Shown: positions 38,069 through 55,321 of the stretch, one piece after another | Layout: each line of letters begins with the position of its first letter | Position numbering within the stretch: position 1 is the stretch's first letter | Source of the DNA: a virus | IMG/VR virus record: IMGVR_UViG_3300027734_000045 | Coordinates: 57,062-121,061 of that record | Length of the DNA stretch: 64,000 bases | Reading direction: 5' to 3' (one strand) | Made by a program: the position numbers and the translations under genes | The notes under the pieces: generated by a model | What the model saw: the letters and a program-made list of their open reading frames with translations, nothing else | Databases searched by the model: none | Told to the model about the DNA's origin: nothing

Positions 38069-38266
38069 ATGGCTCAAGACAACCAAGCCGACCAAGGCGA
38101 ATTTTTAGGTAACGTTCTAGTGCTAACTAGAAATCAACTAGCGTCTGCTATGAACGCATGCACTGAACTAGAGGCTGCATTGACTATAGAAAGAAAGCGC
38201 AATGAAGAGCTAGCTGCTCGAGTCGCTGAACTAGAGTCTCAGACTAAGGCAGCTACGGATAAATAA
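38069..38266 (+). CDS. Small coiled-coil protein
   Basis: AAGGA RBS; heptad pattern; TAATG coupling downstream. Confidence 0.7.
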   Translation: MAQDNQADQGEFLGNVLVLTRNQLASAMNACTELEAALTIERKRNEELAARVAELESQTKAATDK

Positions 38267-38736
38267 TGATTAACGTAAAAGATGGCGCCAGAACTCTTCA
38301 ATTTGATGGAGAGCTTTTAGGTACGTCTTCTTCATACAGGAGAGGCTCTGTCCGCTGGATTGAGTTTGAGCTGTATAGAACCAAGAGCGGTTCGTATGTT
38401 TTGTCTCGTGTTGGAGTTTCACTGGTCTTCCATGGAGCGGCGTGTCCTCTAGTAAAGAGATACAGTCTTACTGAGGCGCCGGTTGAAGACCTAACTGAAC
38501 GCTCTCTTCCTTGCGAGCAGTGCAACCCTACTGATGACGTAGATTTAGTGTTCCCCGAAAAGAGTAGAAGCTGGGCGCAGGTTAGCGAAGAGCCGCAGGC
38601 TGTTCTAGACGCGCTTTACAAGTACGATGACGGTGGAGCAAGGTACCTAACAAACGTGGCGCAAAGGCTATTAGAAGATTCAGCCGAAAAAGACTCCAAA
38701 ATAGATGAAGTCTACAGGATAGAACTTATCCCATAG
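38266..38736 (+). CDS. Hypothetical protein with probable Zn-binding H/C residues
   Basis: RW.E..LYRT..G.YV motif; H...C and CxxC. Confidence 0.7.
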   Translation: MINVKDGARTLQFDGELLGTSSSYRRGSVRWIEFELYRTKSGSYVLSRVGVSLVFHGAACPLVKRYSLTEAPVEDLTERSLPCEQCNPTDDVDLVFPEKSRSWAQVSEEPQAVLDALYKYDDGGARYLTNVAQRLLEDSAEKDSKIDEVYRIELIP

Positions 38737-38772: not shown

Positions 38773-39783
38773 ATGTTTATAGTAATCGAAGGCACAGACG
38801 CCTCAGGTAAGAGTTCACTTACTCAGGCTGTCGAAGAAGAAATCGCAAGCAGGCTCCAATCAAGGCTGCCTATCAACTCATTCCATAAGGGTAAACCTGA
38901 GGAAGAGACTCGTCGTTGGGTTTTGCGTGATTACGTTCTGTCAATAGAAGATAAGTCATTCGTAGACAAGGCGACACTCGCTGACCGCTGGCACTGGGGA
39001 GAAATAACCTACGCTCCGCTAAAACGTCCACACACTAACAAGGACGGATACGGCCTTCTTGGAGAGGCTGGGTGGCGCTGGGTGGAACTTTTTATGGCTT
39101 CCCGTGGTATCCAACAGTTCTGGCTTTACCAGCCTCTAAGTGTCATAGAGGGCCGTCTAAAGGCGCGTGGTGATGACTATGTCTTGCCTGATGAGCTACC
39201 TTTTATTCTAGAACAATACGGCAAGGCAGCCGAGCAAATCATTGGCCTAAAGAAACTTCAACCTGCTCCAGACAGCCTAGATGAGATTCCAAATCTCGCT
39301 AAGGAAATTGTTGACCTAGCGCTTGTCAAGGCTGAGTCCGTTAGAGCTCTAAGAGACTTTGGTCCGTACATCGGAGTTCCTAAGCCTAAGGTTCTGCTAG
39401 TCGGCGATAGGCACAATGCCACTAAGCGCTATGGGCACGAGACTAACCTTCCATTTATGCCTGTTGATGGGAACTCAGGCGAGTATCTTCTCACTGCTCT
39501 TCCGGCAGATGAGTGGAAGAACATCGGACTTATAAACATAAACGACCATCCGGAGATGTTCCGTTCTCTTTGGGAAGCGCTAGGCTGTCCGCCGATAGTA
39601 GCGCTTGGTCGCCTGGCCGAGCGAGGCCTAGTTAAACAAGGATTCATAGATTCTCAATACAACGTTGCTCCGCATCCGCAGCGGGTGCGCAGATTTGCAA
39701 ACTCTAGAAAACAAGAATACGGCGAGGCGATACTTAGATTAGCCGACACTACAGATAAGGAAGACAAATGGATACTGCGATAA
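38773..39783 (+). CDS. Thymidylate/dNMP kinase fused to a C-terminal uracil-DNA-glycosylase-like domain
   Basis: P-loop IEGTDASGKSS and DRWH..E..Y; C-terminal KVLLVGD..PF...GNSG.YL..PPIVALG..A..HPQ matches the UDG superfamily layout. Confidence 0.75.
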   Translation: MFIVIEGTDASGKSSLTQAVEEEIASRLQSRLPINSFHKGKPEEETRRWVLRDYVLSIEDKSFVDKATLADRWHWGEITYAPLKRPHTNKDGYGLLGEAGWRWVELFMASRGIQQFWLYQPLSVIEGRLKARGDDYVLPDELPFILEQYGKAAEQIIGLKKLQPAPDSLDEIPNLAKEIVDLALVKAESVRALRDFGPYIGVPKPKVLLVGDRHNATKRYGHETNLPFMPVDGNSGEYLLTALPADEWKNIGLININDHPEMFRSLWEALGCPPIVALGRLAERGLVKQGFIDSQYNVAPHPQRVRRFANSRKQEYGEAILRLADTTDKEDKWILR

Positions 39784-40622
39784 TCAACATCAAAGACGGA
39801 GTCAATGGCTACGTTGACCTAGTGCAACATGTTTTAAAACACGGTAAGGAAGTGGCTCCACGTGGGCAGAAGACCAGAGAAATTGAAGACGCCATCATTA
39901 GAATCGATGATGTCTACAACACTTTGCCTTTAGGAATCAACCGTGGAACCGTTCCTGGAATCGGTGCTGTAGAGGCTTGTCAGCTACTTGGAGGAAGCAG
40001 CATCCCGGAGCTAGTGATAGCCGTTGGTCCACAGTTCAAAAACTTTGCCGAGGATAACGGAATCTTTCACGGTGCGTATGGACTTAGAACCAATGGGCAA
40101 TACGACGTTATTATCGAAAGACTCAAGGCAGACCCTGATACTCGCCAGGCCGTAGTCACAATCTGGAATCCAGAGTACGACCTGCAGCCAAGCAAGAGAG
40201 ACTATCCTTGCACGGTTTTACATCAATTTAGAATTCGTGACAATAAACTAAACATGAGCGTCTACATGCGTTCCAATGACGTTTGGCTTGGTGCCGCCTA
40301 CGACTTCTTCCAGTTTACCCGTGTTCAGTTGGCTATTGCTTCAGTGCTAGGAATCGAACCTGGAACTTATAACCACCACGTCGGCTCGCTTCACATCTAT
40401 GAGCAGCACTACGAGGCTGCAGACAGTCTCAAGTATAGTGATAAGATTATTGATGTGCCGTTTATAACTGGAGCAACATGGGCAGAGGTTAGCGACTCAG
40501 CAAATGACGCTTTGTTTGCCGCCATGGATGTTAAGCCACTAGATAGCATAAGCCAAGACGCACGCTGGTACGCCGAGGCAATGAAAAACGCAATCAAGCG
40601 CAACGCTGAGAAGAGTGAGTAA
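39768..40622 (+). CDS. Thymidylate-synthase-family enzyme, dCMP hydroxymethylase-like
   Basis: DYPCT..QF.IRD.KL..MRSNDVWLG...D..VGSLHIY; Asp at the position of ThyA Asn177, as in T4 gp42. Confidence 0.82.
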   Translation: MDTAIINIKDGVNGYVDLVQHVLKHGKEVAPRGQKTREIEDAIIRIDDVYNTLPLGINRGTVPGIGAVEACQLLGGSSIPELVIAVGPQFKNFAEDNGIFHGAYGLRTNGQYDVIIERLKADPDTRQAVVTIWNPEYDLQPSKRDYPCTVLHQFRIRDNKLNMSVYMRSNDVWLGAAYDFFQFTRVQLAIASVLGIEPGTYNHHVGSLHIYEQHYEAADSLKYSDKIIDVPFITGATWAEVSDSANDALFAAMDVKPLDSISQDARWYAEAMKNAIKRNAEKSE

Positions 40623-40862
40623 ATGCCAGAAGACGGCGAGCAGTACATAGACCTAGGCATTAGCCACCTACGTATTGTCGCCGTTCAACTTCACGTGGTC
40701 TACAAAGAACTACGCGAGGCCGGATTCGATAAAAGTGAAAGCTTATATCTAATCTCGCAGCTGCTTGTTGTGTCTACTCCTGAAGTAGACAGTGGACCTT
40801 ATAGATACGACAACTACAACGACAATGAGAGAGACGATGACGATGATGGTGCAGGAGCCTAG
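40623..40862 (+). CDS. Hypothetical protein (79 aa)
   Basis: Abuts the upstream stop; LH..Y..L..AGF...E.L pattern. Confidence 0.6.
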   Translation: MPEDGEQYIDLGISHLRIVAVQLHVVYKELREAGFDKSESLYLISQLLVVSTPEVDSGPYRYDNYNDNERDDDDDGAGA

Positions 40863-41319
40863 GCCGTCCTGGGACGAAGTTTGGATGGACGTTGCTAGAA
40901 CTATTAGCAAACGTTCAAGATGCTCTAGAGCGCACGTAGGCGCAGTAGTAGTTTCGGCTGAACAGCGAATAAGCGCGACTGGCTACAACGGCCCGGCTGC
41001 GAATCTAAAAGTACAAGGCGACTGCATAAATTGGTGCGACAGAGCTAAGGGTCTTACTCCACTTGACAATACCTATGATTCTTGTCCGTCTATTCATGCT
41101 GAGGCCAACGCTCTTTTATACGTAGACCGCTCGAGAATTGAAGGCGGAACTATCTACGTTACTGGTGCTCCGTGTATGCAGTGCGCCAAACTTATCAGCA
41201 ACTCTGGACTGCGTAGAGTCGTCTCCATTGTTAGGCAGATAGATGTGCACAGAAAGCCAGAACGCGTGATAGACTATTTACGTAGCTGCGGAATAGAAGT
41301 ATCTACCATTGAGGAGTGA
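40843..41319 (+). CDS. dCMP deaminase
   Basis: RPSWD..WM..A..RS.C..VGAV..GYNG..HAEANA..PCxxC; start at ATG 40843 or 40846 is more plausible than GTG 40792. Confidence 0.9.
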   Translation: MMVQEPRPSWDEVWMDVARTISKRSRCSRAHVGAVVVSAEQRISATGYNGPAANLKVQGDCINWCDRAKGLTPLDNTYDSCPSIHAEANALLYVDRSRIEGGTIYVTGAPCMQCAKLISNSGLRRVVSIVRQIDVHRKPERVIDYLRSCGIEVSTIEE

Positions 41320-41322
41320 CAA

Positions 41323-43143
41323 ATGACACGTGGATTAGAAGAAGTAAAGTTAGACCTAGTTGATAGCGTTGAAAAGGCAGGACAGTTTCTAACCTGGCTT
41401 GGAGAACGCAGGCCACACAACGCTATAGCCATTGACACTGAAACAGGAGAGCTTCCTGGTCGCCCGCGCTCAGATGCGCTTTCTCCTTGGCACGGCAGAC
41501 TTCGTTTAGTGCAGGTTGGGGATGCGATGCACGGCTGGGCGATTCCTTGGGACGAATGGGCTGGAGTCTTCTACCAAGCAATGAACAAATACGATGGTCA
41601 AATCGTGTGTCACAACATCGCCTTTGAAGCTAAGTTCTTTGAGATTCAGTCTAAGTGGAGTATGCCTTGGCAAAAGGCGCACGACACTATGATTATGGCT
41701 CAAATTATCGACCCGCTTGGCTCTGGCGCTTTGAAGAGGCTGACATCACAATACGTTGACAGCAGGGCGGCTGCTTTGCAGTCTAACTTAGATAACGCTT
41801 TGATAGACAACGGTTGGACCTGGGGAACTGTACCTACAAACTTTGAACCGTATTGGGCCTATGGCGCACTGGACACTGTGCTCACGATGAGACTGTGGGA
41901 AAAGTTCTGGGAGAAATGCGGACCTGATGGACCTTATAGCAGATCGTACGAGCTTGAGATGGCTGCAAGAAAAATAGTCACTCGCATGGAACTCAACGGA
42001 GCGCGCATCGATTTAGATTATTCGCGTAAGAAATACGAAGAACTTAACAGCTATACTGAGCAAGTGAAGGCTTGGGCAAGAGACACGTACAATGGAGTTT
42101 CTATTACCAGCAACATTCAACTAGTTAGGTTGTTTGAAAGCATGGGAGCTGAGTTCACTGAGTTTACTGCGACTGGCCAGAAATCTGCTACTAAGGACCA
42201 ACTAAGACTTCTAGTGCGAGACGGCTCCCCAGAAGTACAGAATTTAGCTCAAACAGTTTTGGCTCAACGTAAGGCAGATAAACTAGCCAACACCTACTTC
42301 CTAAACTTTATAAATGACAACATTAACGGATTCGTTCACCCGTCTGTAAAGACTCTTGGTGCGCGTACTGGTCGCATGTCTATCACTAATCCTGCACTGC
42401 AGACTCTACCTAAGGGCGATGACACTGTTCGCCGTGCATTTATTCCTAAGGACGAAGACCACGTAATCGTGACCTCTGACCTTGACCAAGTCGAGTTTCG
42501 TATGTTTGCGTCGATGTCCAAGGACCCTAACCTAATCAGCCTGTTCAACCTTGCTGACGCAACTGGTTCGGACCCGTTTACTGAGATTGGCCGTGAGATT
42601 TATGCTGACCCGTCTATGCAACGTTCAGATAAGAGACGTAATCTAATCAAAGGCGTAATCTACGGTCGTCTTTATGGAGCCGGAGTTGAGAAGCAGGCAA
42701 TCACTGCTGGTGTTGCAAAAACACAGATGCAGGCTGTGTCAGACGCCTTTGACACTAGGTTCCCAGGCATGTCCGTCTTTCAAAAGCAAATCGATGACCT
42801 TGGCATGCGCAGACTGCGAGCTGAAGGTCAAGGATACGTTCACACTTGGACTGGAAAACGTCTTCCTTGTGATGACGACCGCACCTATACCTTAGTGAAC
42901 TATCTGATTCAAGGTGGAGCTGCTGAGGTATTTAAGAACAACTTAGTAAAGTTAGACCAAGCAGATTTGACAGATTTGCTTATCGTGCCGGTGCACGATG
43001 AAATCGTACTAAACGCACCAAGAAAAGATGTCAAAGAGATTATGCAGACTGTAAAGGAGTGTATGACTACGACAGAGGGATGGGCAGTTCCGCTCACCTC
43101 GGGAATCGATGGACCACTTGAAACGTGGGGAGATAAATACTAA
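41323..43143 (+). CDS. polA: DNA polymerase family A with 3'-5' exonuclease
   Basis: IDTET, HN..F, HDT, Y...D exonuclease motifs; RTGRMS..P.LQ; DLDQVEFR; K....YG.LYG; NY.IQG; VHDEI. Confidence 0.95.
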   Translation: MTRGLEEVKLDLVDSVEKAGQFLTWLGERRPHNAIAIDTETGELPGRPRSDALSPWHGRLRLVQVGDAMHGWAIPWDEWAGVFYQAMNKYDGQIVCHNIAFEAKFFEIQSKWSMPWQKAHDTMIMAQIIDPLGSGALKRLTSQYVDSRAAALQSNLDNALIDNGWTWGTVPTNFEPYWAYGALDTVLTMRLWEKFWEKCGPDGPYSRSYELEMAARKIVTRMELNGARIDLDYSRKKYEELNSYTEQVKAWARDTYNGVSITSNIQLVRLFESMGAEFTEFTATGQKSATKDQLRLLVRDGSPEVQNLAQTVLAQRKADKLANTYFLNFINDNINGFVHPSVKTLGARTGRMSITNPALQTLPKGDDTVRRAFIPKDEDHVIVTSDLDQVEFRMFASMSKDPNLISLFNLADATGSDPFTEIGREIYADPSMQRSDKRRNLIKGVIYGRLYGAGVEKQAITAGVAKTQMQAVSDAFDTRFPGMSVFQKQIDDLGMRRLRAEGQGYVHTWTGKRLPCDDDRTYTLVNYLIQGGAAEVFKNNLVKLDQADLTDLLIVPVHDEIVLNAPRKDVKEIMQTVKECMTTTEGWAVPLTSGIDGPLETWGDKY

Positions 43144-43610
43144 TGACAAAAATGATTTTAGCAGTAGACCCTGGCAAGGCGACAGGAATGGCGCTATTTA
43201 CCTTTGAGGTTGGCAGTGAGCCAGAACTAGTCTGGTCTATAGAGGTTCAACAGCACGAGTACGCTGAGCCTATTCGAAACACGCTGCTTCTTGCAGACTA
43301 CTCGGGTGTCTCTCTTGAGATAGTCTGCGAAAGATTTACGATAAACGCGCAGACAGTAAAGAACACTCAGGCGCCATACTCACTTGAGCAGATTGGAATT
43401 CTAAAGCAATGCATGATGGACAAGTTGATTGACCCGGACTCAATTGTGTTCCAGTCTCCAGCTGACGCTAAGAGAATGTTTACCAACGAGGCACTCAAGA
43501 AACTTGAGTATTGGCACAAGGGTGGAGAGGGTCACGCTCTAGATGCGATTAGACACGGGCTTCTTCGGCTAGTAAAAACTGGTTGGAAGCCTCTTAGACT
43601 GCTCCAATAA
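43143..43610 (+). CDS. RuvC-like Holliday junction resolvase
   Basis: ILAVDPG..TG, V.E, H..DA.RH RNase H-fold pattern. Confidence 0.8.
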   Translation: MTKMILAVDPGKATGMALFTFEVGSEPELVWSIEVQQHEYAEPIRNTLLLADYSGVSLEIVCERFTINAQTVKNTQAPYSLEQIGILKQCMMDKLIDPDSIVFQSPADAKRMFTNEALKKLEYWHKGGEGHALDAIRHGLLRLVKTGWKPLRLLQ

Positions 43611-43628
43611 AAACAAGAAATAATACCA

Positions 43629-43675
43629 CATACTAATAGAAAACACAGACAAACTGTAAAAATCGTGTTAGTATG
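43629..43675 (+). promoter_or_regulatory. Probable promoter (TGtTAGTAT) overlapped by inverted repeat CATACTAA/TTAGTATG
   Basis: AT-rich gap before the helicase gene, with AAAGGA RBS downstream. Confidence 0.4.
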
Positions 43676-43700
43676 TTTTTAGTGACGAAAGGAATACACA

Positions 43701-45509
43701 GTGCCAGTATACGCTGAAATTGACCCAAATGGTAAGCACGTAGTGCTAACCGCTGACTGGAGATTCAAGGAGCTCTGCAAGAGCGTTCCAGGCGCAAGCT
43801 ACAATGGCAAGGAACAAGTATGGAGAGTTCCTGTTTCTTGGGGAACATGCTTGGCCTTGCGTTCAACATTTAGAGATGAACTAATAATCGGCGAAAATCT
43901 TTCCACCTGGGCAAACAACGAATTAGCTACACGAATCAATCCTGCCAATGAGCTAAGAGACCTAGAGGTGCTGCCTGAAGGAGAAGGCGACCAAGACCTT
44001 TTCCCGCATCAACGTGCAGGAGTTAAGTTTTTGGCCACAGCTCGCAGAGCTCTTCTTGCGGATGAGCCAGGTCTAGGAAAAACCGCTCAGGCTATCCGAG
44101 CTATCAAGGAGCTACAGGATAGAGGTGAACAGGTGTTTCCTGCGCTTGTCGTTTGCCCGAACACGCTAAAGAAAAACTGGAAGCGCGAGTTTGAGAGATG
44201 GTGGCCTGGAGTCAACGTAGAAGTAATCAAGGGTTCGGCAACACAAAGGCGAAATCAGTTTGAAGCAGAGAACGTTGATGTCTATGTTATCAACTGGGAG
44301 TCTCTGCGCACTCATTCTCGCTTATCGGGATACGGTTCAATTGCACTTGCTCGTTGCATCGAGTGCGGAGGCCACGATGAAAAGGTCACGGCCAATCGTT
44401 GTGAGGTTCACCTACGAGAATTAAACAAAATCGACTTCAAGGCTGTGGTGGCCGATGAGATTCACAGGTCAAAGGAGCCTAAGTCTAAACAGACTAGAGC
44501 TCTGTGGGCCGCAACGGGAAACGCAGACATTAGATTTGCACTTACTGGAACACCTATAGCTAATAACGTGCTAGACCTATGGGCGATTCTTCACTGGATA
44601 GCTCCAGAGGAGTGGCCAAGTAAGAGTCGCTGGATTGACCGCATGATTGACATAATGCTAAACGCGTTTGGTGGAATGATGGTTCTTGGTGTAAAGCCTC
44701 TAATGGAGCCAGAGTTCCATGCGTCTATAAATCCTAGAATGCGTCGAATGCTAAAGGCTCGCGTGCTTCCATGGCTGCCTGAAATGATGTTCGAGAGACG
44801 TGATGTCGAGATGTCTACTAAGCAGAAGAAAGCTTACGAGCAGATGCGCGACAACATGATTGCAGAACTTGAAAACGGAGAGGCTATCACGGCTCCTAGC
44901 GCGCTGACTCAAACTACGCGTCTATTACAGTTCGCTAGTTCATACGCAGAGAACACATTTGACGAGGTCTCAGGTGAAACTAGAACTGTGTTGACAGCTC
45001 CGTCTGCCAAGGTTGATGCTCTAATGGAAGACATTAGCAATGGAGACTTTGGAGATGACTCTGTCGCAGTGTGCGCGGTGTCTAGACAGCTAATTGAAAT
45101 TCTTAGCGCTGAGCTAACAAGCGCTGGAATAGCCCATGGACTAATTACAGGTGCTCAAAATGAAGATGAACGTCAGAAGTCAATTGACGACTTCCAGTCC
45201 GGTAAAACTAAATGGATTCTGTTTACAGCTCAGGCTGGAGGTGTCGGTGTGACCTTGACTGCAGCTCGCAGACTAGTTATGCTCCAGAGACCTTGGTCTC
45301 TAGTCGACCACAAGCAGGCTCTAGATCGAATCCATAGAATTGGTTCCGAAATACACGATTCAGTAGTTATAATGGACTATATAACTGAAAACACGATTGA
45401 GGAACGAGTACTTCAAGTCTTAGAAACTAAGGCTGATAACTTCGAGCAAATCGTGAAGGATAAAGACAAATTACTAGCGATGCTCAAGGACGACAAGGAA
45501 AGCAAATAA
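43701..45509 (+). CDS. SNF2-family (SF2) DNA helicase
   Basis: LADEPGLGKT, DEIH, LTGTP, GVGVTLT, QA.DRIHRIG. Confidence 0.92.
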   Translation: MPVYAEIDPNGKHVVLTADWRFKELCKSVPGASYNGKEQVWRVPVSWGTCLALRSTFRDELIIGENLSTWANNELATRINPANELRDLEVLPEGEGDQDLFPHQRAGVKFLATARRALLADEPGLGKTAQAIRAIKELQDRGEQVFPALVVCPNTLKKNWKREFERWWPGVNVEVIKGSATQRRNQFEAENVDVYVINWESLRTHSRLSGYGSIALARCIECGGHDEKVTANRCEVHLRELNKIDFKAVVADEIHRSKEPKSKQTRALWAATGNADIRFALTGTPIANNVLDLWAILHWIAPEEWPSKSRWIDRMIDIMLNAFGGMMVLGVKPLMEPEFHASINPRMRRMLKARVLPWLPEMMFERRDVEMSTKQKKAYEQMRDNMIAELENGEAITAPSALTQTTRLLQFASSYAENTFDEVSGETRTVLTAPSAKVDALMEDISNGDFGDDSVAVCAVSRQLIEILSAELTSAGIAHGLITGAQNEDERQKSIDDFQSGKTKWILFTAQAGGVGVTLTAARRLVMLQRPWSLVDHKQALDRIHRIGSEIHDSVVIMDYITENTIEERVLQVLETKADNFEQIVKDKDKLLAMLKDDKESK

Positions 45510-46444
45510 TGACAACAGTAGAACCAATCAAAATCTCTAACTCTGAGATTCAAACATTCAAGGATTGCCGTCGCAAGTGGTGGTTAGCTTATTACCGTAG
45601 ACTGCAACCAAAAAACAAAAACAAGACGGGCGCACTTGCACTTGGTTCTCGTATTCACGAAGCACTTGACATGTACTATTCAACTGGTCAGGATTTGCTC
45701 GAGGCTCACGCAGAACTTCTAAACAAAGACCGTGAACTGTATAAAGCGGAATGGCGCGACCTAAGTGAGCTTGAGTCTGAAGGCGAACTTGGCCGCATCA
45801 TGCTTGAAGGCTACCTGCAGTGGGTAGACGAAGAAGGCATCGACGCTGAGCTAGAAATGATTTCCACTGAGGAGATTATCTCAATGCCTTTGATGGAAGG
45901 CCGCGTAGAGCTACAAGGTAAACTAGACATGCGTGTTCGTCGCAAGGGCGACGGAGTGCGTATGTTTAGAGACTTTAAAACCGTTGGCGGTTCTTTCTCT
46001 GACTTTGCAAACCAGGCTCAAATGAACGAACAGATTCTTACCTACATGCTTCTTGAGTCAGCTCAGAACAAAGAAGGTGAACGTTCCGAAGGTGGAATCT
46101 TTACCATGCTAAAAAAGGTAAAGAGAACCGCGAACGCAAAGCCTCCGTTCTTTGAACAGATTGAAGTTCGCCACAACGTGTTTACTATGCGTTCGTTTTG
46201 GCAGAGACTGCACGGCACGCTTACCGACATGCTTCGAGTGCGCGATGCTTTAGATGAAGGTGCAAACCCGCAGTTTGTAGCTTACCCGACTCCATCTAGA
46301 GACTGCAAGTGGAAGTGCCAGTTCTATTCAGTGTGTCCGCTAATCGACGACGGCTCTGCGGCAGAGCAGGCAATCAGCGAGCTATTTGAAGAATCTAATC
46401 CGTACGCATACTATGGTCAGGAAGACCCAAAGGGTGATGCGTAA
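45509..46444 (+). CDS. Cas4/RecB-like PD-(D/E)xK exonuclease
   Basis: SNSE...F..C.R.W, GS..H, GKLD..DFKT, Q...Y, C.WKC.F..VC. Confidence 0.85.
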   Translation: MTTVEPIKISNSEIQTFKDCRRKWWLAYYRRLQPKNKNKTGALALGSRIHEALDMYYSTGQDLLEAHAELLNKDRELYKAEWRDLSELESEGELGRIMLEGYLQWVDEEGIDAELEMISTEEIISMPLMEGRVELQGKLDMRVRRKGDGVRMFRDFKTVGGSFSDFANQAQMNEQILTYMLLESAQNKEGERSEGGIFTMLKKVKRTANAKPPFFEQIEVRHNVFTMRSFWQRLHGTLTDMLRVRDALDEGANPQFVAYPTPSRDCKWKCQFYSVCPLIDDGSAAEQAISELFEESNPYAYYGQEDPKGDA

Positions 46445-46508
46445 TGAAGACTTTATTGCAATTCCGCAATGAGAAAACAACAACAACAAATGAAGGAAGG
46501 ATGAGAGT

Positions 46509-47264
46509 ATGTCAGACGTTCAACGTTCACTAACCATAATGGTTTATGGCGAGTCTAAGGTTGGTAAGTCAACCTTTGCTGTTACAGCACCATACCCACG
46601 TCTCATGCTTGACGTAGAAGGCGGACACCGTTTCTTGCCTATCAACGTAAAGTACTGGGACCCACTGCGCGAGGAGCCACCAGTTGCCGACGGCACTTGG
46701 GACACCTGCGTAGTACCAGTTCGTGATTACGATACTGTCCTAAAGGCTTATCAATGGCTACAGCTTGGTAAGCACCAGTTCAAATCACTTATCATCGACT
46801 CAGTATCTGAGTTGCAGGTTAAGTGTATGGACAACATCGCTGGAGTAAATCAGATGCAGATGCAGCAGTGGGGCGAACTACTTCGTCACATGGGTTCTCT
46901 GCTTCGCGATTTGCGTGACCTAACGATGCACCCTACCGCTCCGCTAGAAGCAGTAGTTCTAACCGCGATGGCAAGACCTAGCCAGGATGGACGCACGCGT
47001 CCTTACCTGCAAGGACAACTTGCAATCCAGGCTCCGTATTTTTACGATGTCCTTGGAGCAATCAACGTTGAAACCATCCAAAATCCTGACCCAACTCAAC
47101 CTCCATACCGCGCTCGTCGCATGTATGTTGAAAGAACTGACAAATACGAAGCCGGCGAACGCGTCCAGGGCCGTCTTGGTCAAATCGTTGAGCAGCAGGA
47201 CCTCGGAATCGAGCGTATGCTCGACATGATTTTCGGTCCAAAGACCGAGAGCAAGTCGGTCTAA
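46509..47264 (+). CDS. AAA ATPase (Sak4-like recombination protein)
   Basis: YGESKVGKST, LD.EGG, IIDS; lies between the nuclease and the SSB. Confidence 0.82.
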   Translation: MSDVQRSLTIMVYGESKVGKSTFAVTAPYPRLMLDVEGGHRFLPINVKYWDPLREEPPVADGTWDTCVVPVRDYDTVLKAYQWLQLGKHQFKSLIIDSVSELQVKCMDNIAGVNQMQMQQWGELLRHMGSLLRDLRDLTMHPTAPLEAVVLTAMARPSQDGRTRPYLQGQLAIQAPYFYDVLGAINVETIQNPDPTQPPYRARRMYVERTDKYEAGERVQGRLGQIVEQQDLGIERMLDMIFGPKTESKSV

Positions 47265-47310
47265 CCAATCCCGGTTAGTCGATAACTACAGAAAGATAAG
47301 GAATCTCATT

Positions 47311-47862
47311 ATGAGTTCATTAAACTGGGGAGACCTAGTAAAGGACGCCGGAGAATCTTCCGGCGGTCAATACGAGCCGTTGCCAGACGGTGACTACGAC
47401 CTGAAGGTAATCGAGGCTTCGGCCGCGGTTTCACAGTCAGGTAAAACCATGTTCAAAATCACTACTGAGGTTCAGGCAGGTGCGTTCGCTAAGCGTCGTA
47501 TCTGGGACAACTTGGTAGTATCTCCAGACAGCCCAGCTGCTCTAGGCATCTTCTTTTCGAAGATGGCCGCGCTTGGTCTGCCTCGCGAGTACTTCATGGG
47601 AAACCCAAGCAACGCGACTATTGAAGCCGCTATTCTAAATCGTGCATTCCGCGCGCAAATTGGCTCACGTGTGTGGCAAGGCGCTAAGAAGAACGAGATT
47701 AAGAAGTACTACGTTGCTCCTGCGGCTGGCGTTGCTGCCGCTGTAGCTCCTGCTGCTCCAGCACCCGCTCCAGCACCCGCTGCTGCTCCAGCTCCAGCAC
47801 CCGCTCCAGCGCCGGCCGCAGCTCCTGTAGCTGCTGCTGCTCCACCTGCATCGCCGTTCTAA
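47311..47862 (+). CDS. Single-stranded DNA-binding protein (DUF669-like) with Pro/Ala-rich tail
   Basis: YEPLPDG.Y...V......S..GK.M..NE.K; (AP)n linker ending in PF. Confidence 0.78.
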   Translation: MSSLNWGDLVKDAGESSGGQYEPLPDGDYDLKVIEASAAVSQSGKTMFKITTEVQAGAFAKRRIWDNLVVSPDSPAALGIFFSKMAALGLPREYFMGNPSNATIEAAILNRAFRAQIGSRVWQGAKKNEIKKYYVAPAAGVAAAVAPAAPAPAPAPAAAPAPAPAPAPAAAPVAAAAPPASPF

Positions 47863-47868
47863 ACGGAT

Positions 47869-47912
47869 AGTTGTTGTCCTGGGTTCTCTGATAGAGTGCC
47901 CAGGACGCAACT
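47869..47912 (+). terminator. Hairpin after the SSB gene
   Basis: AGTTG..GTCCTGGG..CTCT/AGAG..CCCAGGAC.CAACT. Confidence 0.5.
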
Positions 47913-47930
47913 CTAACTTCAAGGACTACA

Positions 47931-49145
47931 ATGAAAATTCTTATGACAGGCTATACAGCCTTGCAGATTGGTAATCCAGTCCGCAGTATTCAAAAAATCA
48001 ACGTTCCAGCATCTATCGTGAAGGCGCTGCGTGACGCCGGACACGAGGTCGATTGGCGGAAGGTCACCGTTGGCGAAGACCTATCTATGTACGATGTTGC
48101 CTGGATAAACTTGGCGCCAATGAACTCGCTAAATGGACGCCATGGAGCGATGGGTACTCTGTACACTTTAGCTTCTGGTCTACCTTGCGTAGGCTTCTTC
48201 GATGACTGGCAGTTCAACGCTGTGTTCAACGGTGCACGCGCGCTAAAGCGTGACACGACTAAGATGCTTTATAAGCACCTGTTTGGTCCAGCAGACGCTC
48301 GTGGCACTGAGGCAGCTACGCATTTTAGCCGCAAGTCAGTAGACGAGGCTATAGCTCGTATTGAAGCTGTAGACCCGGCTCGAGCAAAGAAAATCTCCTT
48401 CGAGAGATACTACATGTTAGACAAAGACGCAGACGTCGAGCCTTACGAAAAAATGCTCATTGAGTCAGCTAGTCTTCTTCTAAATGATCGTTGGGCTGAA
48501 GGAATGGTTCCAGTGTGTCCAATGTATGGTTTTGGTGATCGTTCACTTGTGCGCAAGCGTATGCCAAAGGACATGGGCGCAATCGAGGCGCTAGACCCAA
48601 GCCCGACTATTTATGAGCTTCTAAATGAGGTTGCTCCGGCTGCACCTGAAACCAAAAAACGCGGCTGGGTACTTGGCGCGCTTATGCCACACGACACCTG
48701 GTTAGATAAGAAAACTATTTCCTGGCCTGTAGAAATCGTTGGTAGTCGCAAACTTGTTCGTGAACGCGGCGGTCAGCGCTTTGACACAGAGAAAGAAGTG
48801 CTAGAGTTCTATAACCAGCACTGGGGAATTATGTCTCCGCCTTACATGCACTCTGGCTCAGGCTGGTGGCGTAGTCGTTTTATGTACGCAGCCCGTGTTG
48901 GTTCTATCCTGTTGACTGAGAAGGGTGAAGCCAATGGGCTTGGCTCAGCTTACAACGTCACTCTCGCTCAGGTTGAGAAGATGTCAGACGAGGAGCTAAA
49001 GGCTACAGCAGACGCACAGGCCCAAGCGCTTCGCGCATTTATGCCAACCTATCAAAGCTTCGCTGAACACTGTGTAAGAATCGTAGAACGAGCTGTGAAA
49101 GAAGACAAGGGCCTAAAGCTAAATCCTGACGGCACTCGAGCATGA
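47931..49145 (+). CDS. Glycosyltransferase-like protein (GT-B type), probable DNA-base glycosyltransferase
   Basis: MKILMTG..AL..AGHEV..DLS.YD start; G...PPY...GSGWWR.R...A donor-binding-like segment. Confidence 0.7.
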   Translation: MKILMTGYTALQIGNPVRSIQKINVPASIVKALRDAGHEVDWRKVTVGEDLSMYDVAWINLAPMNSLNGRHGAMGTLYTLASGLPCVGFFDDWQFNAVFNGARALKRDTTKMLYKHLFGPADARGTEAATHFSRKSVDEAIARIEAVDPARAKKISFERYYMLDKDADVEPYEKMLIESASLLLNDRWAEGMVPVCPMYGFGDRSLVRKRMPKDMGAIEALDPSPTIYELLNEVAPAAPETKKRGWVLGALMPHDTWLDKKTISWPVEIVGSRKLVRERGGQRFDTEKEVLEFYNQHWGIMSPPYMHSGSGWWRSRFMYAARVGSILLTEKGEANGLGSAYNVTLAQVEKMSDEELKATADAQAQALRAFMPTYQSFAEHCVRIVERAVKEDKGLKLNPDGTRA

Positions 49146-50164
49146 GCAAGATTTTGGTGACTGGAATGTCAGCACCACAGGCGTCTCAAAAGGCTAACTC
49201 TCGAGGTTTAAGTTTTACTAAAGTCGTAGTTGACGCGTTGTCTGAGCTTGGCCACGAGGTTCACTGGTCTCTGCCCTCGCTAGACTGGACTGAGGAAGAC
49301 TTGTCTTTATTTGACTCGGTTGTAGTTGGAGTTTCTCCGCTAACGAGTCTAAGTGCTAACTACTCATACGGTGGTCTTCATGCTATTGGAGAACTAAAGG
49401 ACAGTGACAAACTTACCCTACTAATCGATGCTCCACAGGTTGCTCAAATAGGTGCGGGTCTACGGGCAGTTAGAAGTAATCCTGATAGCCTCACTAAGGC
49501 ATTCTATTCGAATAGGCCAGGGTATCAGCGGGTGACGGATTCGAGTGTCTCTAAAAGGCTTCTAGCCACCGCCGAGTGGTTGCTGGACGAGCAGTGGCCA
49601 ACAACTATCTATCCCGAGTTGCCGTGGAAAGATTCCGACTCGACAGAGCAACTTCTTCCTAGTGGAGCTAAAGGTGCGTTAGTTGGAATCAACCGAGACA
49701 TCGCTCTAATCGAAAAAGACCTACTTACTGCAAGAAGAGAGAAGTGGGTAGTCGACAGCTACACGACTCCATGGGCTAAGTCTACAGTAAAAACTATCTC
49801 ACTCCCGACTGCTCCTATGAAGTGGCATAAGGGATGTGACGACGTCATGGTCCAAACTCAAATTGCTCGGTCAATTGGAGCACTAATAACTCCTTACAGA
49901 CAAGACGGCACTTGGTGGAGCTACAGATACGCTCAAGCGCTGTCTGCCTACACACCAATAGCTACAGGCTGGCAAGAGAGCGGGAAACTGCACGACTCCT
50001 GGAGTTTCTTAGCGGCAACTATTGAAAGTGCAAGTCAGAATATACGTGATGGTATTTCTATAGAACAGCGTGAGTCCTACGTGGCGGCCATTCCAAGTAT
50101 AATCGAAACCAATAAGAAACTTCAAGACACACTAAAAATTACAAAAAGAAAGGTAATACTATGA
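49142..50164 (+). CDS. Second, paralogous glycosyltransferase-like protein
   Basis: KILVTG..AL..LGHEV..DLS.FD and G....PY...GTWW..RY..A parallel the upstream gene; ATGA overlap. Confidence 0.65.
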   Translation: MSKILVTGMSAPQASQKANSRGLSFTKVVVDALSELGHEVHWSLPSLDWTEEDLSLFDSVVVGVSPLTSLSANYSYGGLHAIGELKDSDKLTLLIDAPQVAQIGAGLRAVRSNPDSLTKAFYSNRPGYQRVTDSSVSKRLLATAEWLLDEQWPTTIYPELPWKDSDSTEQLLPSGAKGALVGINRDIALIEKDLLTARREKWVVDSYTTPWAKSTVKTISLPTAPMKWHKGCDDVMVQTQIARSIGALITPYRQDGTWWSYRYAQALSAYTPIATGWQESGKLHDSWSFLAATIESASQNIRDGISIEQRESYVAAIPSIIETNKKLQDTLKITKRKVIL

Positions 50165-50649
50165 GCGATAACGTGCTTTTTAAAAAGTGGCTCGAGAAAA
50201 CAAGAGAGCTTCAAAAAGAAGTTTACAAAATAGACTACGCCTCAATGGAAGGCGATAGCCCAGAAAACATCAATAACCTAGTTGAGTACATTCGCTGGAA
50301 CATGCTTGCCATTGACGATGAGCTAGCAGAAATGCGCCAGGCAATCTCGTGGAAGCCGTGGCAGCATGACGAGCCATACGCAGACCGCGAGGAGCTAATC
50401 AAGGAAGCCGTAGACGTTCTGCACTTCGTGGCTAACATAATCGTAGCTGCTGGAGGAACTGACGAGGTACTAGATGAGTTCTACGTAGCTAAGATGGAAA
50501 AGAACCGTGCAAGACAGACCGCTGGATACAAGGTCAAGGCCGAGGGAATCAAGTGCGTAATGTGCTCGCGCGCGTTAGATGATGTGGCACCTAGCGAAAA
50601 TCATCCAAATGTATGCGTAAAGTGTGATGAAGAAGATAGGAACAAGTAA
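50161..50649 (+). CDS. All-alpha dNTP pyrophosphatase (dimeric dUTPase/dCTPase, MazG-like) with C-terminal CxxC..CxxC
   Basis: DELAE....WKPW....EAVDVLHF....Y..K..N..RQ. Confidence 0.85.
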   Translation: MSDNVLFKKWLEKTRELQKEVYKIDYASMEGDSPENINNLVEYIRWNMLAIDDELAEMRQAISWKPWQHDEPYADREELIKEAVDVLHFVANIIVAAGGTDEVLDEFYVAKMEKNRARQTAGYKVKAEGIKCVMCSRALDDVAPSENHPNVCVKCDEEDRNK

Positions 50650-51068
50650 TGGGAAGCGTAGATTTTGAATGGGTAAGACAACAGTTTATTGAGTCTAAAA
50701 CTAAAATCGTAGTTGGTCTAGCCGTAATGAAGCTACTTGAAACTTGGCAAGAGATTGACCTAACACCAGACCAGGCAAAAGAAGTCTTTGAAATCCTAGG
50801 TTCTTTAGCGCAAGGTCACGCCATAGCAGCGAGCAAACCTGATGAGGTCTGGGTTGGCGCTAGACGTGGAGACCTAAAGGTTGGAGACGAAGTTCGTGTC
50901 AAGCGTGACGCCTACTCTGGAGAGCTAGGTACTCTTCACAATGGGCGCCGAGGAAAAATTATAGCAATTAGAAGTGGTGACATCATCATAAGAACTCTTG
51001 ACAACAAGAGTCCATCATTAGATGGAGTACACTACGCTCCTGACCAGTTAGAAAAGAGAATCGTCTAA
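50649..51068 (+). CDS. Hypothetical protein with C-terminal SH3-like barrel
   Basis: LKVGDEVRVK..HNGR.G.I; translationally coupled on both sides. Confidence 0.65.
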   Translation: MGSVDFEWVRQQFIESKTKIVVGLAVMKLLETWQEIDLTPDQAKEVFEILGSLAQGHAIAASKPDEVWVGARRGDLKVGDEVRVKRDAYSGELGTLHNGRRGKIIAIRSGDIIIRTLDNKSPSLDGVHYAPDQLEKRIV

Positions 51069-51376
51069 TGACAGAAGAATCTAAAAATGAACTTCCTAGA
51101 ATTGAGGCTTTGCGTGAGGCTGCAAGAATTATCTCTGGTGATAGAGACGTGCAGTATGGAGCTCCAGAAGATAACCTAGGACGTATAGCTAAGCTGTGGT
51201 CGGTTTTATTTGAAAAAGAGATTACGGCTCAAGACGTGGCGATGGCGATGGTCGCACTAAAGATGGCTCGCTATGTGAACAAGGGAGACTTCCAGCCCGA
51301 CACCTGGATTGACATCGCTGGATACGCTGGAATTGGCTATGAAGTTGGCAAACCTAAGAACGAGAGCAATCTATAA
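51068..51376 (+). CDS. DUF6378-like helical protein (possible nucleotide hydrolase)
   Basis: A..I..GDR..QYG.P......IA.LW...DVA..M..LK.AR...D.W.DIAGY. Confidence 0.75.
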   Translation: MTEESKNELPRIEALREAARIISGDRDVQYGAPEDNLGRIAKLWSVLFEKEITAQDVAMAMVALKMARYVNKGDFQPDTWIDIAGYAGIGYEVGKPKNESNL

Positions 51377-51443: not shown

Positions 51444-51983
51444 ATGCAAACATTCGTTCCACTGACAACTAAGTTCTCTGACATAGCGCAGGTTCTAGAC
51501 AACAAGCGACTAAACAAGCAGGCACTAGAAGGCTGGCAGATTCTTATGGTTCTGACCAGGCTAAACCCAGACGGCTCACAGCGCGTAGTCAAAGGCTGGG
51601 CGAACCATCCAGCAGTCAAGATGTGGGAAGGCCACGAAGTAGCTCTTCACGACTACATCCAGGAGATGGTTATCGAATGGAAAAAACGTGGCTTCAAGTC
51701 GACCATCGGAGACAAGGCTGCACAGACCATGCAGCACGCCAAGGCTAACGGTTTTGACATCGATACGTACACTCTCCCGTCTTGGATGGTTGACCATGAA
51801 GTTCATGAACTCGTTGCGGCTAGTCACCGGGTAGCTCTTCTAAACAAAAACTATCAGTGGTACACGCAGTTCGGTTGGCAGGAAGACGACGGAATCTATC
51901 CTGAAGTTTACACGTATGTTTGGCCTAATGTTGACGGCACGTACATCATAGGTGAACCAAGAGCCACTTTAGCCAACAAATAG
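51444..51983 (+). CDS. Pyrimidine-dimer DNA glycosylase-like protein (T4 endoV/MSMEG_6728-like)
   Basis: MQTF.P...A..LD.KRL.KQ..E..QIL..W.NHPAV.MW.G...SH...L..K...Y. Confidence 0.78.
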   Translation: MQTFVPLTTKFSDIAQVLDNKRLNKQALEGWQILMVLTRLNPDGSQRVVKGWANHPAVKMWEGHEVALHDYIQEMVIEWKKRGFKSTIGDKAAQTMQHAKANGFDIDTYTLPSWMVDHEVHELVAASHRVALLNKNYQWYTQFGWQEDDGIYPEVYTYVWPNVDGTYIIGEPRATLANK

Positions 51984-55090: not shown

Positions 55091-55321
55091 ATGCAACAGA
55101 CAAAAAGACGAATGAGTATAAGAAACGTGGCTATGACCTATGGTATTCCAGCCCGTACTGTTGCTAGAGCTGTAGAGCAGGGGGAACTGCCAGCCTTGCG
55201 CACCATAACCGAAACAGGCAGAGAACGCGCGTATATATCTGCGGAAGACGTAGAACGTTGGCTTTCCTTACTCTCAGTTGAAAATCAGGCGACTAGTAGC
55301 AGAAGCGCGCAGGGACAGTAA
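55091..55321 (+). CDS. Helix-turn-helix DNA-binding protein (excisionase/MerR-like)
   Basis: S...VA..YG....TV.R.V..GELPA....R.YI...DV..W; GAGG before ATG 55091. Confidence 0.75.
   Translation: MQQTKRRMSIRNVAMTYGIPARTVARAVEQGELPALRTITETGRERAYISAEDVERWLSLLSVENQATSSRSAQGQ

Follow-up and report, generated by a model that had tools for sequence, protein, structure and literature searches.

A predicted T4-like pathway for cytosine hydroxymethylation and glycosylation in an uncultured lake actinophage

Results

Organisation of the locus

The window, a stretch of 64,000 nucleotides (positions 57,062 to 121,061 of the IMG/VR record IMGVR_UViG_3300027734_000045), comes from the 121-kb record of an uncultured lake phage of the siphovirus type, which has an actinobacterial host and a family A polymerase. 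All the open reading frames named in an earlier note on this DNA were recovered at the same coordinates. The genes and features considered here, in window positions, are the following.

38773..39783, + strand: dNMP-kinase-like protein, 336 aa, extended by a C-terminal domain of ~150 aa (PHROG and PDB profile match)
39768..40622, + strand: thymidylate synthase (TS)-family enzyme, 284 aa, predicted dCMP hydroxymethylase (5hm-dCMP synthase) (PF00303)
40302..40304, + strand: Asp179 codon (GAC), opposite the specificity residue Asn177 of ThyA (alignment)
40792..41319, + strand: dCMP deaminase-family enzyme, 175 aa (PF00383, dCMP_cyt_deam_1)
41323..43143, + strand: family A DNA polymerase (PolA) with 3'-5' exonuclease domain (PF00476, PF01612)
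43143..47862, + strand: intervening replication and recombination genes, context only (annotation and profile matches)
47931..49145, + strand: GT1, 404 aa, GT-B fold, proposed DNA hmC glycosyltransferase (predicted structure)
49142..50164, + strand: GT2, 340 aa, GT-B fold, GT1 paralogue, proposed second DNA glycosyltransferase (predicted structure, hhalign)
50161..50649, + strand: all-alpha dNTP pyrophosphatase, 162 aa, T4 gp56 homologue, proposed dCTPase/dUTPase (PF08761)
50649..51068, + strand: 139-aa protein with no assigned function, travelling with the module (DSL-LC01 homologue)
51068..51376, + strand: DUF6378 protein, 102 aa (PF19905)

The dCMP deaminase-family gene (PF00383, E 9.1e-21) lies directly upstream of the PolA gene (PF00476, E 1.7e-54; PF01612, E 4.2e-7), as had been noted, and its position between the TS-family and PolA genes is kept in 76 of 80 related loci. 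The interval 43143..47862 holds a gene called RuvC-like in relatives, a SNF2 helicase, a PD-(D/E)XK nuclease, an AAA_24 protein, which carries a RecA-like annotation in phage DSL-LC01, and DUF669; these genes are context, outside the modification chemistry. The reported absence of sugar-donor synthesis genes from the window extends to the whole 121-kb record, where GLF, NTP_transferase and Epimerase had no match anywhere.

A TS-family enzyme with hydroxymethylase-type residues

The TS-family enzyme matched PF00303 with an E-value of 2.9e-27, and it scored under every NCBIfam TS equivalog cut-off (e.g. 90.1 vs 174.55 bits). Its best PDB match was the CMP hydroxymethylase MilA (5b6d, E 2.5e-22). 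The replacement of ThyA Asn177 by Asp, claimed from the sequence, was borne out by alignment with E. coli ThyA, in which the GAC codon at 40302 encodes the aligned residue Asp179. More broadly, D145, C148, T149, D171 and D179 correspond to ThyA positions 143, 146, 147, 169 and 177, so that the catalytic Cys is kept (Cys148 aligns with C146), and E58, Y94 and R166 are likewise retained.

Positions 143/147/169/177 of ThyA were used as a diagnostic signature, following the rules of PMC13326640, by which an acidic residue at ThyA L143 provides water access, a hydroxymethylase keeps D169 and a 5-hydroxy-dCMP synthase of the RB69 type requires D169N. This signature is D-T-D-D in the enzyme of the window and in 119/119 listed family members, and it is identical in aligned T4 gp42 and, as read off a pairwise alignment, in MilA. 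RB69 gp48, the 5-hydroxy-dCMP synthase that provides the positive control for the D169N rule, has E-T-N-D, as published; the enzyme of PaMx74, described in a preprint as a 5mC phage, has N-P-D-D, SPO1 gp29 has DNDN and ThyA itself LHDN. Since D-T-D-D is shared with T4 gp42, unlike RB69 and PaMx74, hydroxymethyl is preferred to hydroxy and methyl as the group that this enzyme is predicted to add, the distinction from methyl having been checked against a single methylating phage enzyme (PaMx74). Of the three products originally considered, hydroxymethyl is thus the one supported by D143/T147/D169/D177 (ThyA numbering).

Two other assignments were not supported. A 5-hydroxy-dCMP synthase like RB69 gp48 needs Asn at ThyA D169, where Asp171 is kept here, and a dCMP methyltransferase of the Xp12/PaMx74 type, which would be ThyA-like, non-acidic at 143 and usually accompanied by DHFR, was disfavoured by comparison with one reference enzyme, given D143/T147 in place of N143/P147, a different clade and no accompanying DHFR. 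In the phylogenetic tree, the PaMx74 enzyme groups with ThyA (support 98/96) and the clade of the present enzyme joins a Gordonia phage clade (96/94), while the T4 and RB69 enzymes stand apart on very long branches and the deep nodes are weak. The 121-kb genome carries this one TS-family gene, and searches of it for ThyX and DHFR found none.

Accessory nucleotide enzymes

The first gene had been described as a dNMP kinase/UDG-like fusion, of which the kinase half stands. Residues 1-176 form a P-loop dNMP/thymidylate-kinase-like domain, with a match to PHROG 761 'thymidylate kinase' (E 5.1e-8, residues 1-149) and, for the family profile, to YorR (PDB 2axp, E 1.5e-8, residues 3-176); 20 of 29 orthologues match Thymidylate_kin. 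The UDG label is tentative, as its matches are sub-threshold: PF03167 was hit by 10/29 orthologues at E<=1, with a best value of 0.0097, and one ESM-Atlas lead also points to UDG, while the C-terminal ~150 aa of the window's own protein gave no match to Pfam UDG or to a PDB chain. The domain may be a member of the UDG superfamily. The kinase-like protein is proposed to phosphorylate 5hm-dCMP as an analogue of gp1.

The all-alpha dNTPase can be identified as a homologue of T4 gp56, with matches to dUTPase_2 (PF08761, E 3.7e-10), a family which T4 gp56 itself matches, and to gp56 by BLASTP (26% over 136 aa, E 4e-10), and it is proposed to be a dCTPase/dUTPase. The following 139-aa protein had no Pfam, PHROG or NCBIfam match; a homologue 47% identical occupies the same place in DSL-LC01. 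The last gene was correctly recognised as DUF6378-like (PF19905, E 9e-28, 96.8 bits vs a cut-off of 27.1), without showing any tie to the pathway in which it had been placed; the protein had no PDB relative, and the accessible text of papers naming the family concerns unrelated phages.

Two paralogous GT-B proteins

The two glycosyltransferase-like paralogues proposed earlier are related over their full length (hhalign probability 98.9%, E 1.5e-17, 321 columns). In AF2 predictions (pLDDT 79.6 for GT1 and 91.0 for GT2), both are modelled as full-length GT-B folds with two Rossmann-like domains. The best Foldseek match of GT1 was T4 BGT (1qkj, E 2.4e-6); by VIA, PimA (2gej, Z 17.3), SenB (17.1) and T4 BGT (1nzd, 16.6) were tied, and an Atlas match fell in a PF09198 cluster (TM 0.61/0.69). 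For GT2, T4 BGT came first by VIA (1nzd/1qkj, Z 18.4, rmsd 3.6-3.8, 295-296 residues aligned), leading SenB by ~1.4 Z. The GT-B fold is generic. Sequence methods linked neither protein to BGT, AGT or any Pfam glycosyltransferase family: GT1 and GT2 had no Pfam match, PF09198 included, hhalign against BGT gave probabilities of 0.6% and 2.8%, and PF09198 was matched by 0/136 GT2-family members. The accessible text of bioRxiv 2023.12.21.572611 reports phage GT-B enzymes which glycosylate 5hmC and resemble BGT at Foldseek E-values of 1e-5 to 1e-7, the same strength of likeness as seen here.

Co-occurrence across phages

The GT2 family was found in 14 of 50,697 phage records, namely DSL-LC01 and 13 Gordonia records; among cultured phages, its carriers are DSL-LC01 and eight Gordonia phages, which all share this TS lineage and are also its nearest cultured carriers. 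D-T-D-D was present in 5/5 Gordonia TS enzymes tested. GT2 is kept in the same slot in 45/49 judgeable related loci, and the Sixama GT genes are separated from the TS gene by ~22 kb. GT1 has homologues in 56 phage records, some of them from T4-like phages of Aeromonas and Erwinia that carry a gp42-type enzyme, and the three non-actinophage carriers tested (phiAS4, FBB1 and MW202657) all have a D-T-D-D enzyme. A UDP-galactopyranose mutase gene lies between the two GT genes of DSL-LC01 (GLF, E 5e-30) and another beside the GT1 homologue of Erwinia phage FBB1. From this co-occurrence with D-T-D-D enzymes, which is the evidence that bears on their acceptor, GT1 and GT2 are proposed to act as DNA hmC glycosyltransferases.

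Discussion

Phage T4 produces glucosyl-hmC with the gp56 dCTPase/dUTPase, the gp42 dCMP hydroxymethylase, the gp1 dNMP kinase, the Cd deaminase and alpha- and beta-glucosyltransferases. We infer from sequence, fold and co-occurrence, with a probability of roughly 0.6, that the present phage follows a similar route, making hmC in place of C before replication and glycosylating it afterwards. The gp56-like pyrophosphatase would hydrolyse dCTP (and dUTP) to monophosphates, keeping plain C out of DNA and supplying dCMP to the Asp-type TS homologue, which would hydroxymethylate it at C5 with methylene-tetrahydrofolate and water. The phage kinase and the host NDP kinase would then raise 5hm-dCMP to the triphosphate, for incorporation of hmC into DNA by the phage PolA. 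Because the phage has no thymidylate synthase of its own, the dCMP deaminase would most likely provide dUMP for the host enzyme. After replication, the two GT-B transferases would glycosylate the hydroxymethyl group with a host NDP-sugar as donor, yielding either two linkages or a disaccharide. The earlier note had proposed T4-like modification and glycosylation of cytosine, and in silico a conserved kit for it is present (Asp-type TS homologue, kinase, gp56-like dNTPase, deaminase and two GT-B proteins). GATC is the most strongly avoided 4-mer of the genome (63 observed vs 376 expected, O/E 0.17). This avoidance counts against the idea, since DNA with a sugar shielding each C would not be expected to show it.

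The likeness to T4 covers the same set of steps, the D-T-D-D signature of gp42, a gp56 homologue, a dCMP deaminase and two GT-B transferases with T4 BGT as best or tied structural match. Unlike T4, however, this actinophage is of siphovirus type, has a family A polymerase and lacks a TS or DHFR of its own; its TS homologue appears to form a separate lineage, its kinase is YorR/thymidylate-kinase-like with an extra domain, GT1 and GT2 are related to each other but not, in sequence, to BGT or AGT, and the module is split around recombination genes.

Parts of this arrangement have been described before. In the accessible text of bioRxiv 2024.12.05.627091, Asp-type TS, deaminase, MazG and PolA genes lying together mark modified-cytosine phages and contigs (104/149 vs 17/277). 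The MetaGPA contigs of that preprint and of PMC8670742, Xp12/PaMx74 included, share the neighbourhood (with PRA-PH/MazG), but the enzymes characterised in the portions available made 5mdC, whereas hydroxymethylase-type residues and glycosyltransferases are found here. Contigs combining GT-B and TS genes are likewise known from the accessible text of bioRxiv 2023.12.21.572611, which links ~28% of GT-B contigs to a TS homologue; its GT53/GT66/GT94 5hmC enzymes share the BGT-like GT-B fold at similar Foldseek E-values, but are described there in the neighbourhood of methyltransferase and TET genes, whose products act post-replication. The glycosylated 5-hydroxycytosine pathway of RB69/DLP3/RL38JI (PMC13326640) has in common the Asp at N177, a kinase and DNA glycosyltransferases, and its relatives employ UDP-galactopyranose mutase, as DSL-LC01 does, but its synthases are D169N while Asp169 is kept here. 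Among cultured phages, the Gordonia phages Sixama, Forza, GMA2, GodonK and Phendrix show the same order of kinase, TS (D-T-D-D), deaminase and PolA, and of the GT2-like gene, MazG and WhiB; in them, a 416-aa glycosyltransferase that bears a different annotation immediately precedes the GT2-like gene. They differ in a TS identity of only 35-39%, a GT block ~22 kb away from TS, a Sixama kinase of 198 aa without the extra domain, and a C5-methyltransferase-like gene which is absent here.

The step most exposed to another explanation is glycosylation. The phage could incorporate hmC and leave it bare, with the GT-B enzymes acting on virion proteins or host envelope polymers, which seems unlikely though it deserves weight: the fold fits lipid, small-molecule and protein transferases nearly as well as BGT, GT1 and GT2 lack sequence homology to DNA transferases, and the accessible text of PMC10611076 has the authors reading the UDP-galactopyranose mutase of DSL-LC01 as a cell-wall auxiliary gene. 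Against it, the GT genes sit in a replication/nucleotide module beside the gp56 homologue and not among structural genes, and they co-occur with a D-T-D-D enzyme in unrelated phage lineages, at varying distances. The deaminase, for its part, could act on modified dC nucleotides, and if it converted the 5hm-dC nucleotide in part or in full, 5-hydroxymethyluracil, possibly glycosylated, would replace T besides, or instead of, hmC for C. We regard this as quite improbable: the same dCMP deaminase in T4 serves simply to feed thymidylate synthesis, the host thymidylate synthase can provide dTMP, and nothing marks the enzyme as specific for modified substrates. What speaks for it is the lack of a dTMP-making enzyme in the phage, together with seven deaminases of modified-cytosine contigs which, in the accessible text of bioRxiv 2024.12.05.627091, gave 5hmdU in vivo from 5hmdC.

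An Xp12-like scheme, with dCMP methylated by the TS homologue, 5mC replacing C and the deaminase turning part of the 5m-dC nucleotides into thymidine nucleotides, would match the gene content well, as a single dCMP-specific TS homologue with a deaminase and no other TS is the exact Xp12/PaMx74 layout, and 5/7 deaminase-linked enzymes tested made 5mdC (accessible text of the same preprint). It is nevertheless very unlikely, for the PaMx74 enzyme has N143/P147, groups with ThyA and is accompanied by a DHFR gene, whereas that of the window has D143/T147, belongs elsewhere in the tree and lacks DHFR, and the accompanying glycosyltransferases would find no hydroxyl to act on. That the gene is an ordinary thymidylate synthase with unrelated neighbours, as public annotations would have it, is hardly credible given Asp, Thr and Asp in place of N177, H147 and L143, respectively, scores far below the equivalog cut-offs and a cytidylate hydroxymethylase as best solved relative.

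Under the preferred T4-like reading, the glycosyltransferases offer a further, more tentative suggestion, which we hold at somewhat less than even odds: GT1 and GT2 would represent a large DNA-glycosyltransferase family not covered by Pfam (529 representatives at 50% identity), the pair building an undescribed glycosyl-hmC in this phage, which could be a disaccharide or carry a sugar other than glucose. In relatives with UDP-galactopyranose mutase, galactofuranose is the likely sugar. Besides freshwater actinophages and Gordonia phages, some T4-like phages of Aeromonas, Vibrio and Erwinia share the GT1/GT2 family, and the pathway as proposed would be a known anti-nuclease strategy, here assembled from mostly unnamed enzymes.

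Organisation of the gene run

The IMG/VR record measures 121,061 bp and is rated about 90% complete; the window is its right-hand 64 kb. The stretch from 38.7 to 51.4 kb of the window is a single run of genes, all on the plus strand, and the genes named in the earlier note, a sequence-only reading which proposed a cytosine hypermodification pathway here, were observed as it stated them.

Genes of the run at 38.7-51.4 kb of the window, in order
1st, plus strand: kinase-like protein, 336 aa
2nd, 39768-40622, plus strand: thymidylate synthase (TS) family protein, 284 aa (PF00303, E 2.9e-27)
3rd, plus strand: dCMP deaminase (PF00383, E 9.1e-21)
4th, plus strand: PolA
5th, plus strand: protein bearing a RuvC-like annotation in relatives
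6th, plus strand: SNF2 helicase
7th, plus strand: PD-(D/E)XK nuclease
8th, plus strand: AAA_24 ATPase, RecA-like by annotation in phage DSL-LC01
9th, plus strand: DUF669 protein
10th, 47931-49145, plus strand: GT1, proposed glycosyltransferase, 404 aa, without family match
11th, 49142-50164, plus strand: GT2, proposed glycosyltransferase, 340 aa, without family match
12th, plus strand: dUTPase_2/MazG-type pyrophosphatase (E 3.7e-10)
13th, plus strand: unknown protein, 139 aa
14th, plus strand: DUF6378 protein (E 9e-28)

The DUF6378 gene is followed by a pyrimidine-dimer DNA glycosylase directly past the module (window 51444-51983; Pyr_excise E 3.2e-18; same name on the DSL-LC01 counterpart) and then by a WhiB regulator, which is consistent with an actinobacterial host. 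DUF6378 itself, which the earlier note had listed in its second cluster, falls outside the case. Neither it nor the 139-aa protein gave a PDB relative or a family clue to a role.

Among named phages the closest is DSL-LC01, an Actinomycetia phage assembled from a metagenome, whose gene order is identical and whose TS homologue, GT1 and GT2 share 62%, 29% and 35% identity with those of the window. The order kinase-TS-deaminase-PolA is kept in 76/80 related IMG/VR loci. Directly upstream of the kinase, in 72/80 of these loci (60-81% identity), lies a gene for a 156-aa protein (window 38266-38736) with no match in the family search and 28-33% matches in the Gordonia phages Sixama and GMA2; this protein may be part of the nucleotide module. 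A 79-aa ORF (window 40623-40862) follows the TS homologue and overlaps the GTG start of the deaminase by 71 bases; it is kept in some relatives only (34-60%) and has no family match. Elsewhere, the window holds a giant ORF (window 2-10804, extending beyond it upstream; 4391 aa in the whole genome) followed by large ORFs which are presumably structural, an 877-aa Prim-Pol/D5 primase-helicase (window 55321-57954) and, on the minus strand, a collagen-repeat protein (window 61329-63998).

A predicted dCMP hydroxymethylase

Asp had been noted in the TS homologue in place of ThyA Asn177, and codon 40302 is indeed GAC, encoding Asp179, which aligns with Asn177 of E. coli ThyA. Among solved structures, its best relative is that of the CMP hydroxymethylase MilA (5b6d, E 2.5e-22, over residues 29-216); genuine thymidylate synthases in the PDB search match its C-terminal half only, and it scores far under the cut-off of every NCBIfam TS equivalog.

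Published rules relate active-site residues to product. According to the available part of PMC13326640, N177D confers dCMP as substrate, an acidic residue at L143 accompanies hydroxymethyl and not methyl products, and D169N is a mark of flavin-dependent 5-hydroxy-dCMP synthases; the available part of PMC8670742 adds H147 as a further position differing between modified and unmodified contigs. At ThyA positions 143/147/169/177, the alignment gives L-H-D-N in ThyA and D-T-D-D in both the T4 dCMP hydroxymethylase gp42 and the window's TS homologue. The same four residues were read from the pairwise alignment with MilA, and they occur in 119/119 relatives within the best 120, query counted, of 941 proteins at E<=1e-5. 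As a positive control, RB69 gp48 (E-T-N-D) reproduced the published D169N rule. SPO1 gp29 and CP-51 carry D-N-D-N, and the enzyme of PaMx74, a phage listed in the accessible part of bioRxiv 2024.12.05.627091 among those with 5mC replacing C, carries N-P-D-D; the rule separating methyl from hydroxymethyl products has one methylating phage enzyme as its control. In a tree of 20 rows the PaMx74 enzyme joins ThyA (support 98/96) and the window's TS clade joins the Gordonia-phage clade (96/94). The branches leading to T4 and RB69 are long, and the deep nodes are weak.

No second TS-family gene, ThyX or DHFR was detected in the whole genome. A hydroxymethylase leaves its folate unoxidised, so the absent DHFR fits such an enzyme, if weakly. 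Signature, tree, lone TS-family gene and absent DHFR together lead us to a predicted dCMP hydroxymethylase forming a lineage of its own, a prediction which rests on the residues. The core of the earlier proposal, a 5-modified dCMP which is then glycosylated, is supported in silico, and its choice of hydroxymethyl, hydroxy or methyl is narrowed by D-T-D-D to a probable hydroxymethyl group.

Enzymes of the nucleotide pool

Pairwise alignment of the 162-aa pyrophosphatase with T4 gp56 covers 136 residues (26% identity, E 4e-10), and both proteins match Pfam dUTPase_2; gp56, according to its T4 database record, clears dCTP/dCDP and dUTP/dUDP from the nucleotide pool. Residues 1 to ~176 of the kinase-like protein resemble SPbeta YorR and thymidylate kinases, and 20/29 of its orthologues match Thymidylate_kin. 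The fusion of this kinase to a uracil-DNA glycosylase (UDG)-like domain, suggested in the earlier note, fared less well: UDG (PF03167) matches no part of the genome at a cut-off as loose as E<=10, and the C-terminal part searched alone matched nothing in PDB or Pfam. Among the orthologues, UDG is the sole recurrent non-P-loop family (10/29 at E<=1, best 0.0097, all sub-threshold), and one ESM Atlas neighbour cluster of the domain has UDG in 12% of its members; a UDG-like C-terminal domain is accordingly kept as a lead. The window's deaminase may act on dCMP or on a 5-modified dC nucleotide; deaminases of such neighbourhoods can favour the latter, as shown in the available part of bioRxiv 2024.12.05.627091, where an Asp-type TS, deaminase, MazG and PolA neighbourhood is described as a marker of modified-cytosine contigs (104/149 versus 17/277 contigs).

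Fold and family of the putative glycosyltransferases

The two TRANSFERASES, GT1 and GT2, had been taken for paralogues and are so: hhalign of their family profiles spans 321 columns (98.9%, E 1.5e-17), with an insertion of about 55 residues in GT1. By sequence they are linked to no known transferase: neither has a Pfam, PHROG function or NCBIfam match, their profiles retrieved nothing from PDB sequences but one chance match (E 0.75), hhalign gave no link to T4 beta-glucosyltransferase (BGT), and Pfam over 136 GT2-family members returned single sub-threshold Glyco_transf_4-type matches at most. The GT2 family comprises 529 representatives at E<=0.001 in a library of 1.84 billion proteins; a search for the context of distant GT2 relatives, made with the single protein P0376, retrieved no viral contig.

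AlphaFold models built from the family alignments reached a pLDDT of 79.6 for GT1 and 91.0 for GT2. Searched with Foldseek against PDB, the GT1 model retrieved BGT first (1qkj, E 2.4e-6, TM 0.47/0.52), and for GT2 BGT (1j39) ranked third by E-value and highest by TM (0.58/0.58). With VIA, BGT came first for GT2 (Z 18.4, rmsd 3.6-3.8, 295-296 of 351 residues), followed by SenB (17.0), PimA (15.8) and T4 alpha-glucosyltransferase (15.0), and for GT1 there was a tie of PimA (17.3), SenB (17.1) and BGT (16.6). Independently, the ESM Atlas model of GT1 lies next to a cluster of PF09198, the BGT family (TM 0.61/0.69). In these models both proteins have a firm GT-B fold and a suggestive likeness to BGT in particular. 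The acceptors of GT-B enzymes are many, and the modelled fold by itself cannot say whether DNA is the acceptor of GT1 and GT2.

Co-occurrence with D-T-D-D enzymes

The company these genes keep can help on that point. By tblastn, the GT2 family is present in just 14 of 50,697 phage records, that of DSL-LC01 and 13 from eight Gordonia phages; these phages are also the nearest cultured carriers of the TS homologue. D-T-D-D was found in the five of these eight looked at (Sixama, GMA2, Forza, GodonK and Phendrix), the other three being BlueNGold, Boopy and Mareelih; both key families are thus present in cultured phages. Sixama has, in order, an annotated glycosyltransferase, the GT2-like gene, MazG, a C5-methyltransferase-like gene and WhiB, and this block lies ~22 kb from the kinase-TS-deaminase-PolA block, so the link between GT2 and TS outlasts rearrangement.

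The GT1 family extends to 56 phage records (Aeromonas 19, Vibrio 17, Gordonia 13, and others). Three of the 42 carriers outside Gordonia and DSL-LC01 were inspected: the T4-like Aeromonas phage phiAS4 and the T4-like Erwinia phage FBB1 each have a second, gp42-like TS homologue with D-T-D-D, a UDP-galactopyranose mutase adjoining the GT1 homologue in FBB1, and in the spring-water siphovirus MW202657 a D-T-D-D enzyme adjoins the polymerase and NTP-pyrophosphatase. The GT1 homologues of phiAS4 (L098:3895-7167) and FBB1 (L100:3937-6062) occupy a variable stretch running from motA to anti-sigma factor/holin genes; that of phiAS4 is the middle of three tandem ~350-aa ORFs.

The slot of the putative glycosyltransferases and the presumed sugar donor

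The slot could be judged in 49/80 related IMG/VR loci (of the others, 23 stop short of DUF669 and 8 run on for <2.6 kb past it): 43 hold GT1 and GT2, 2 hold GT2 without GT1 and 4 hold neither. The three of these four that were inspected (L078:18168-20697, L084, L088) carry instead an unknown of 412-416 aa and, after it, ORFs of ~253 and 172-176 aa; these two smaller ORFs, in L078, the one locus scanned, gave sub-threshold matches to APH (E 2.4e-4) and HAD (E 4.8e-4). By hhalign, the proteins replacing GT1 in some relatives (L078, 415 aa; L089, 435 aa) and Sixama gp126 have no kinship to GT1 or GT2. The replacement ORFs call to mind a set, described in the available part of bioRxiv 2023.12.21.572611, of HAD/APH, cytidylyltransferase and GT-B proteins which places heptose on 5hmC; in its behaviour the slot is like a swappable sugar-decoration cassette.

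In DSL-LC01 the GT1-like and GT2-like genes flank a true UDP-galactopyranose mutase gene (GLF E 5e-30). That phage also has, as does Sixama (L093:8803-10101), a C5-cytosine-methyltransferase-like gene near MazG; the two DSL-LC01 features concern L001:16509-17606 and L001:20560-21804, and the window's genome has neither gene. The absence of sugar-donor synthesis genes, previously noted for the window, extends to the whole genome (no GLF, NTP_transferase or Epimerase), and the donor would therefore be an NDP-sugar of the host, as in T4.

Avoidance of GATC

One observation sits oddly with the proposal. GATC is the most under-represented 4-mer of the whole genome (63 observed versus 376 expected, O/E 0.17), unexpected were every cytosine shielded; a nuclease which tolerates the modification, incomplete replacement of cytosine or a cause other than restriction may explain it. 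Palindromes containing C/G have a median O/E of 0.96, statistics too weak to argue for protection. Low values were also recorded for ATAT (0.31), TTAA (0.47) and AAATTT (0.31). The nine public runs holding the phage do so as assembled contigs and are of no use for the modification question, because contigs cannot show base modification; no RNA run is listed among them.

Significance

The T4 pathway is the model for DNA carrying sugar-linked hydroxymethylcytosine (hmC). No paper retrieved in the literature searches proposes hmC in actinophages, though supplements of two NEB preprints may list contigs of this clade; the available parts of the GMA2 (PMC4524720) and DSL-LC01 (PMC10611076) papers do not propose it, and that of bioRxiv 2023.12.21.572611 reports large-scale mining of GT-B-like phage enzymes linked to thymidylate synthase homologues.

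If the reading is true, a transferase family which every library fails to recognise would receive a name, and sugar-coated hydroxymethylcytosine would extend beyond the enterobacterial T-even phages and be common as well in the abundant actinobacterial phages of lakes, given the 941 homologues of the enzyme. Sugar-hmC DNA is resistant to many nucleases and to some library-preparation methods, and its presence would therefore matter for the sampling of these phages in viromes.
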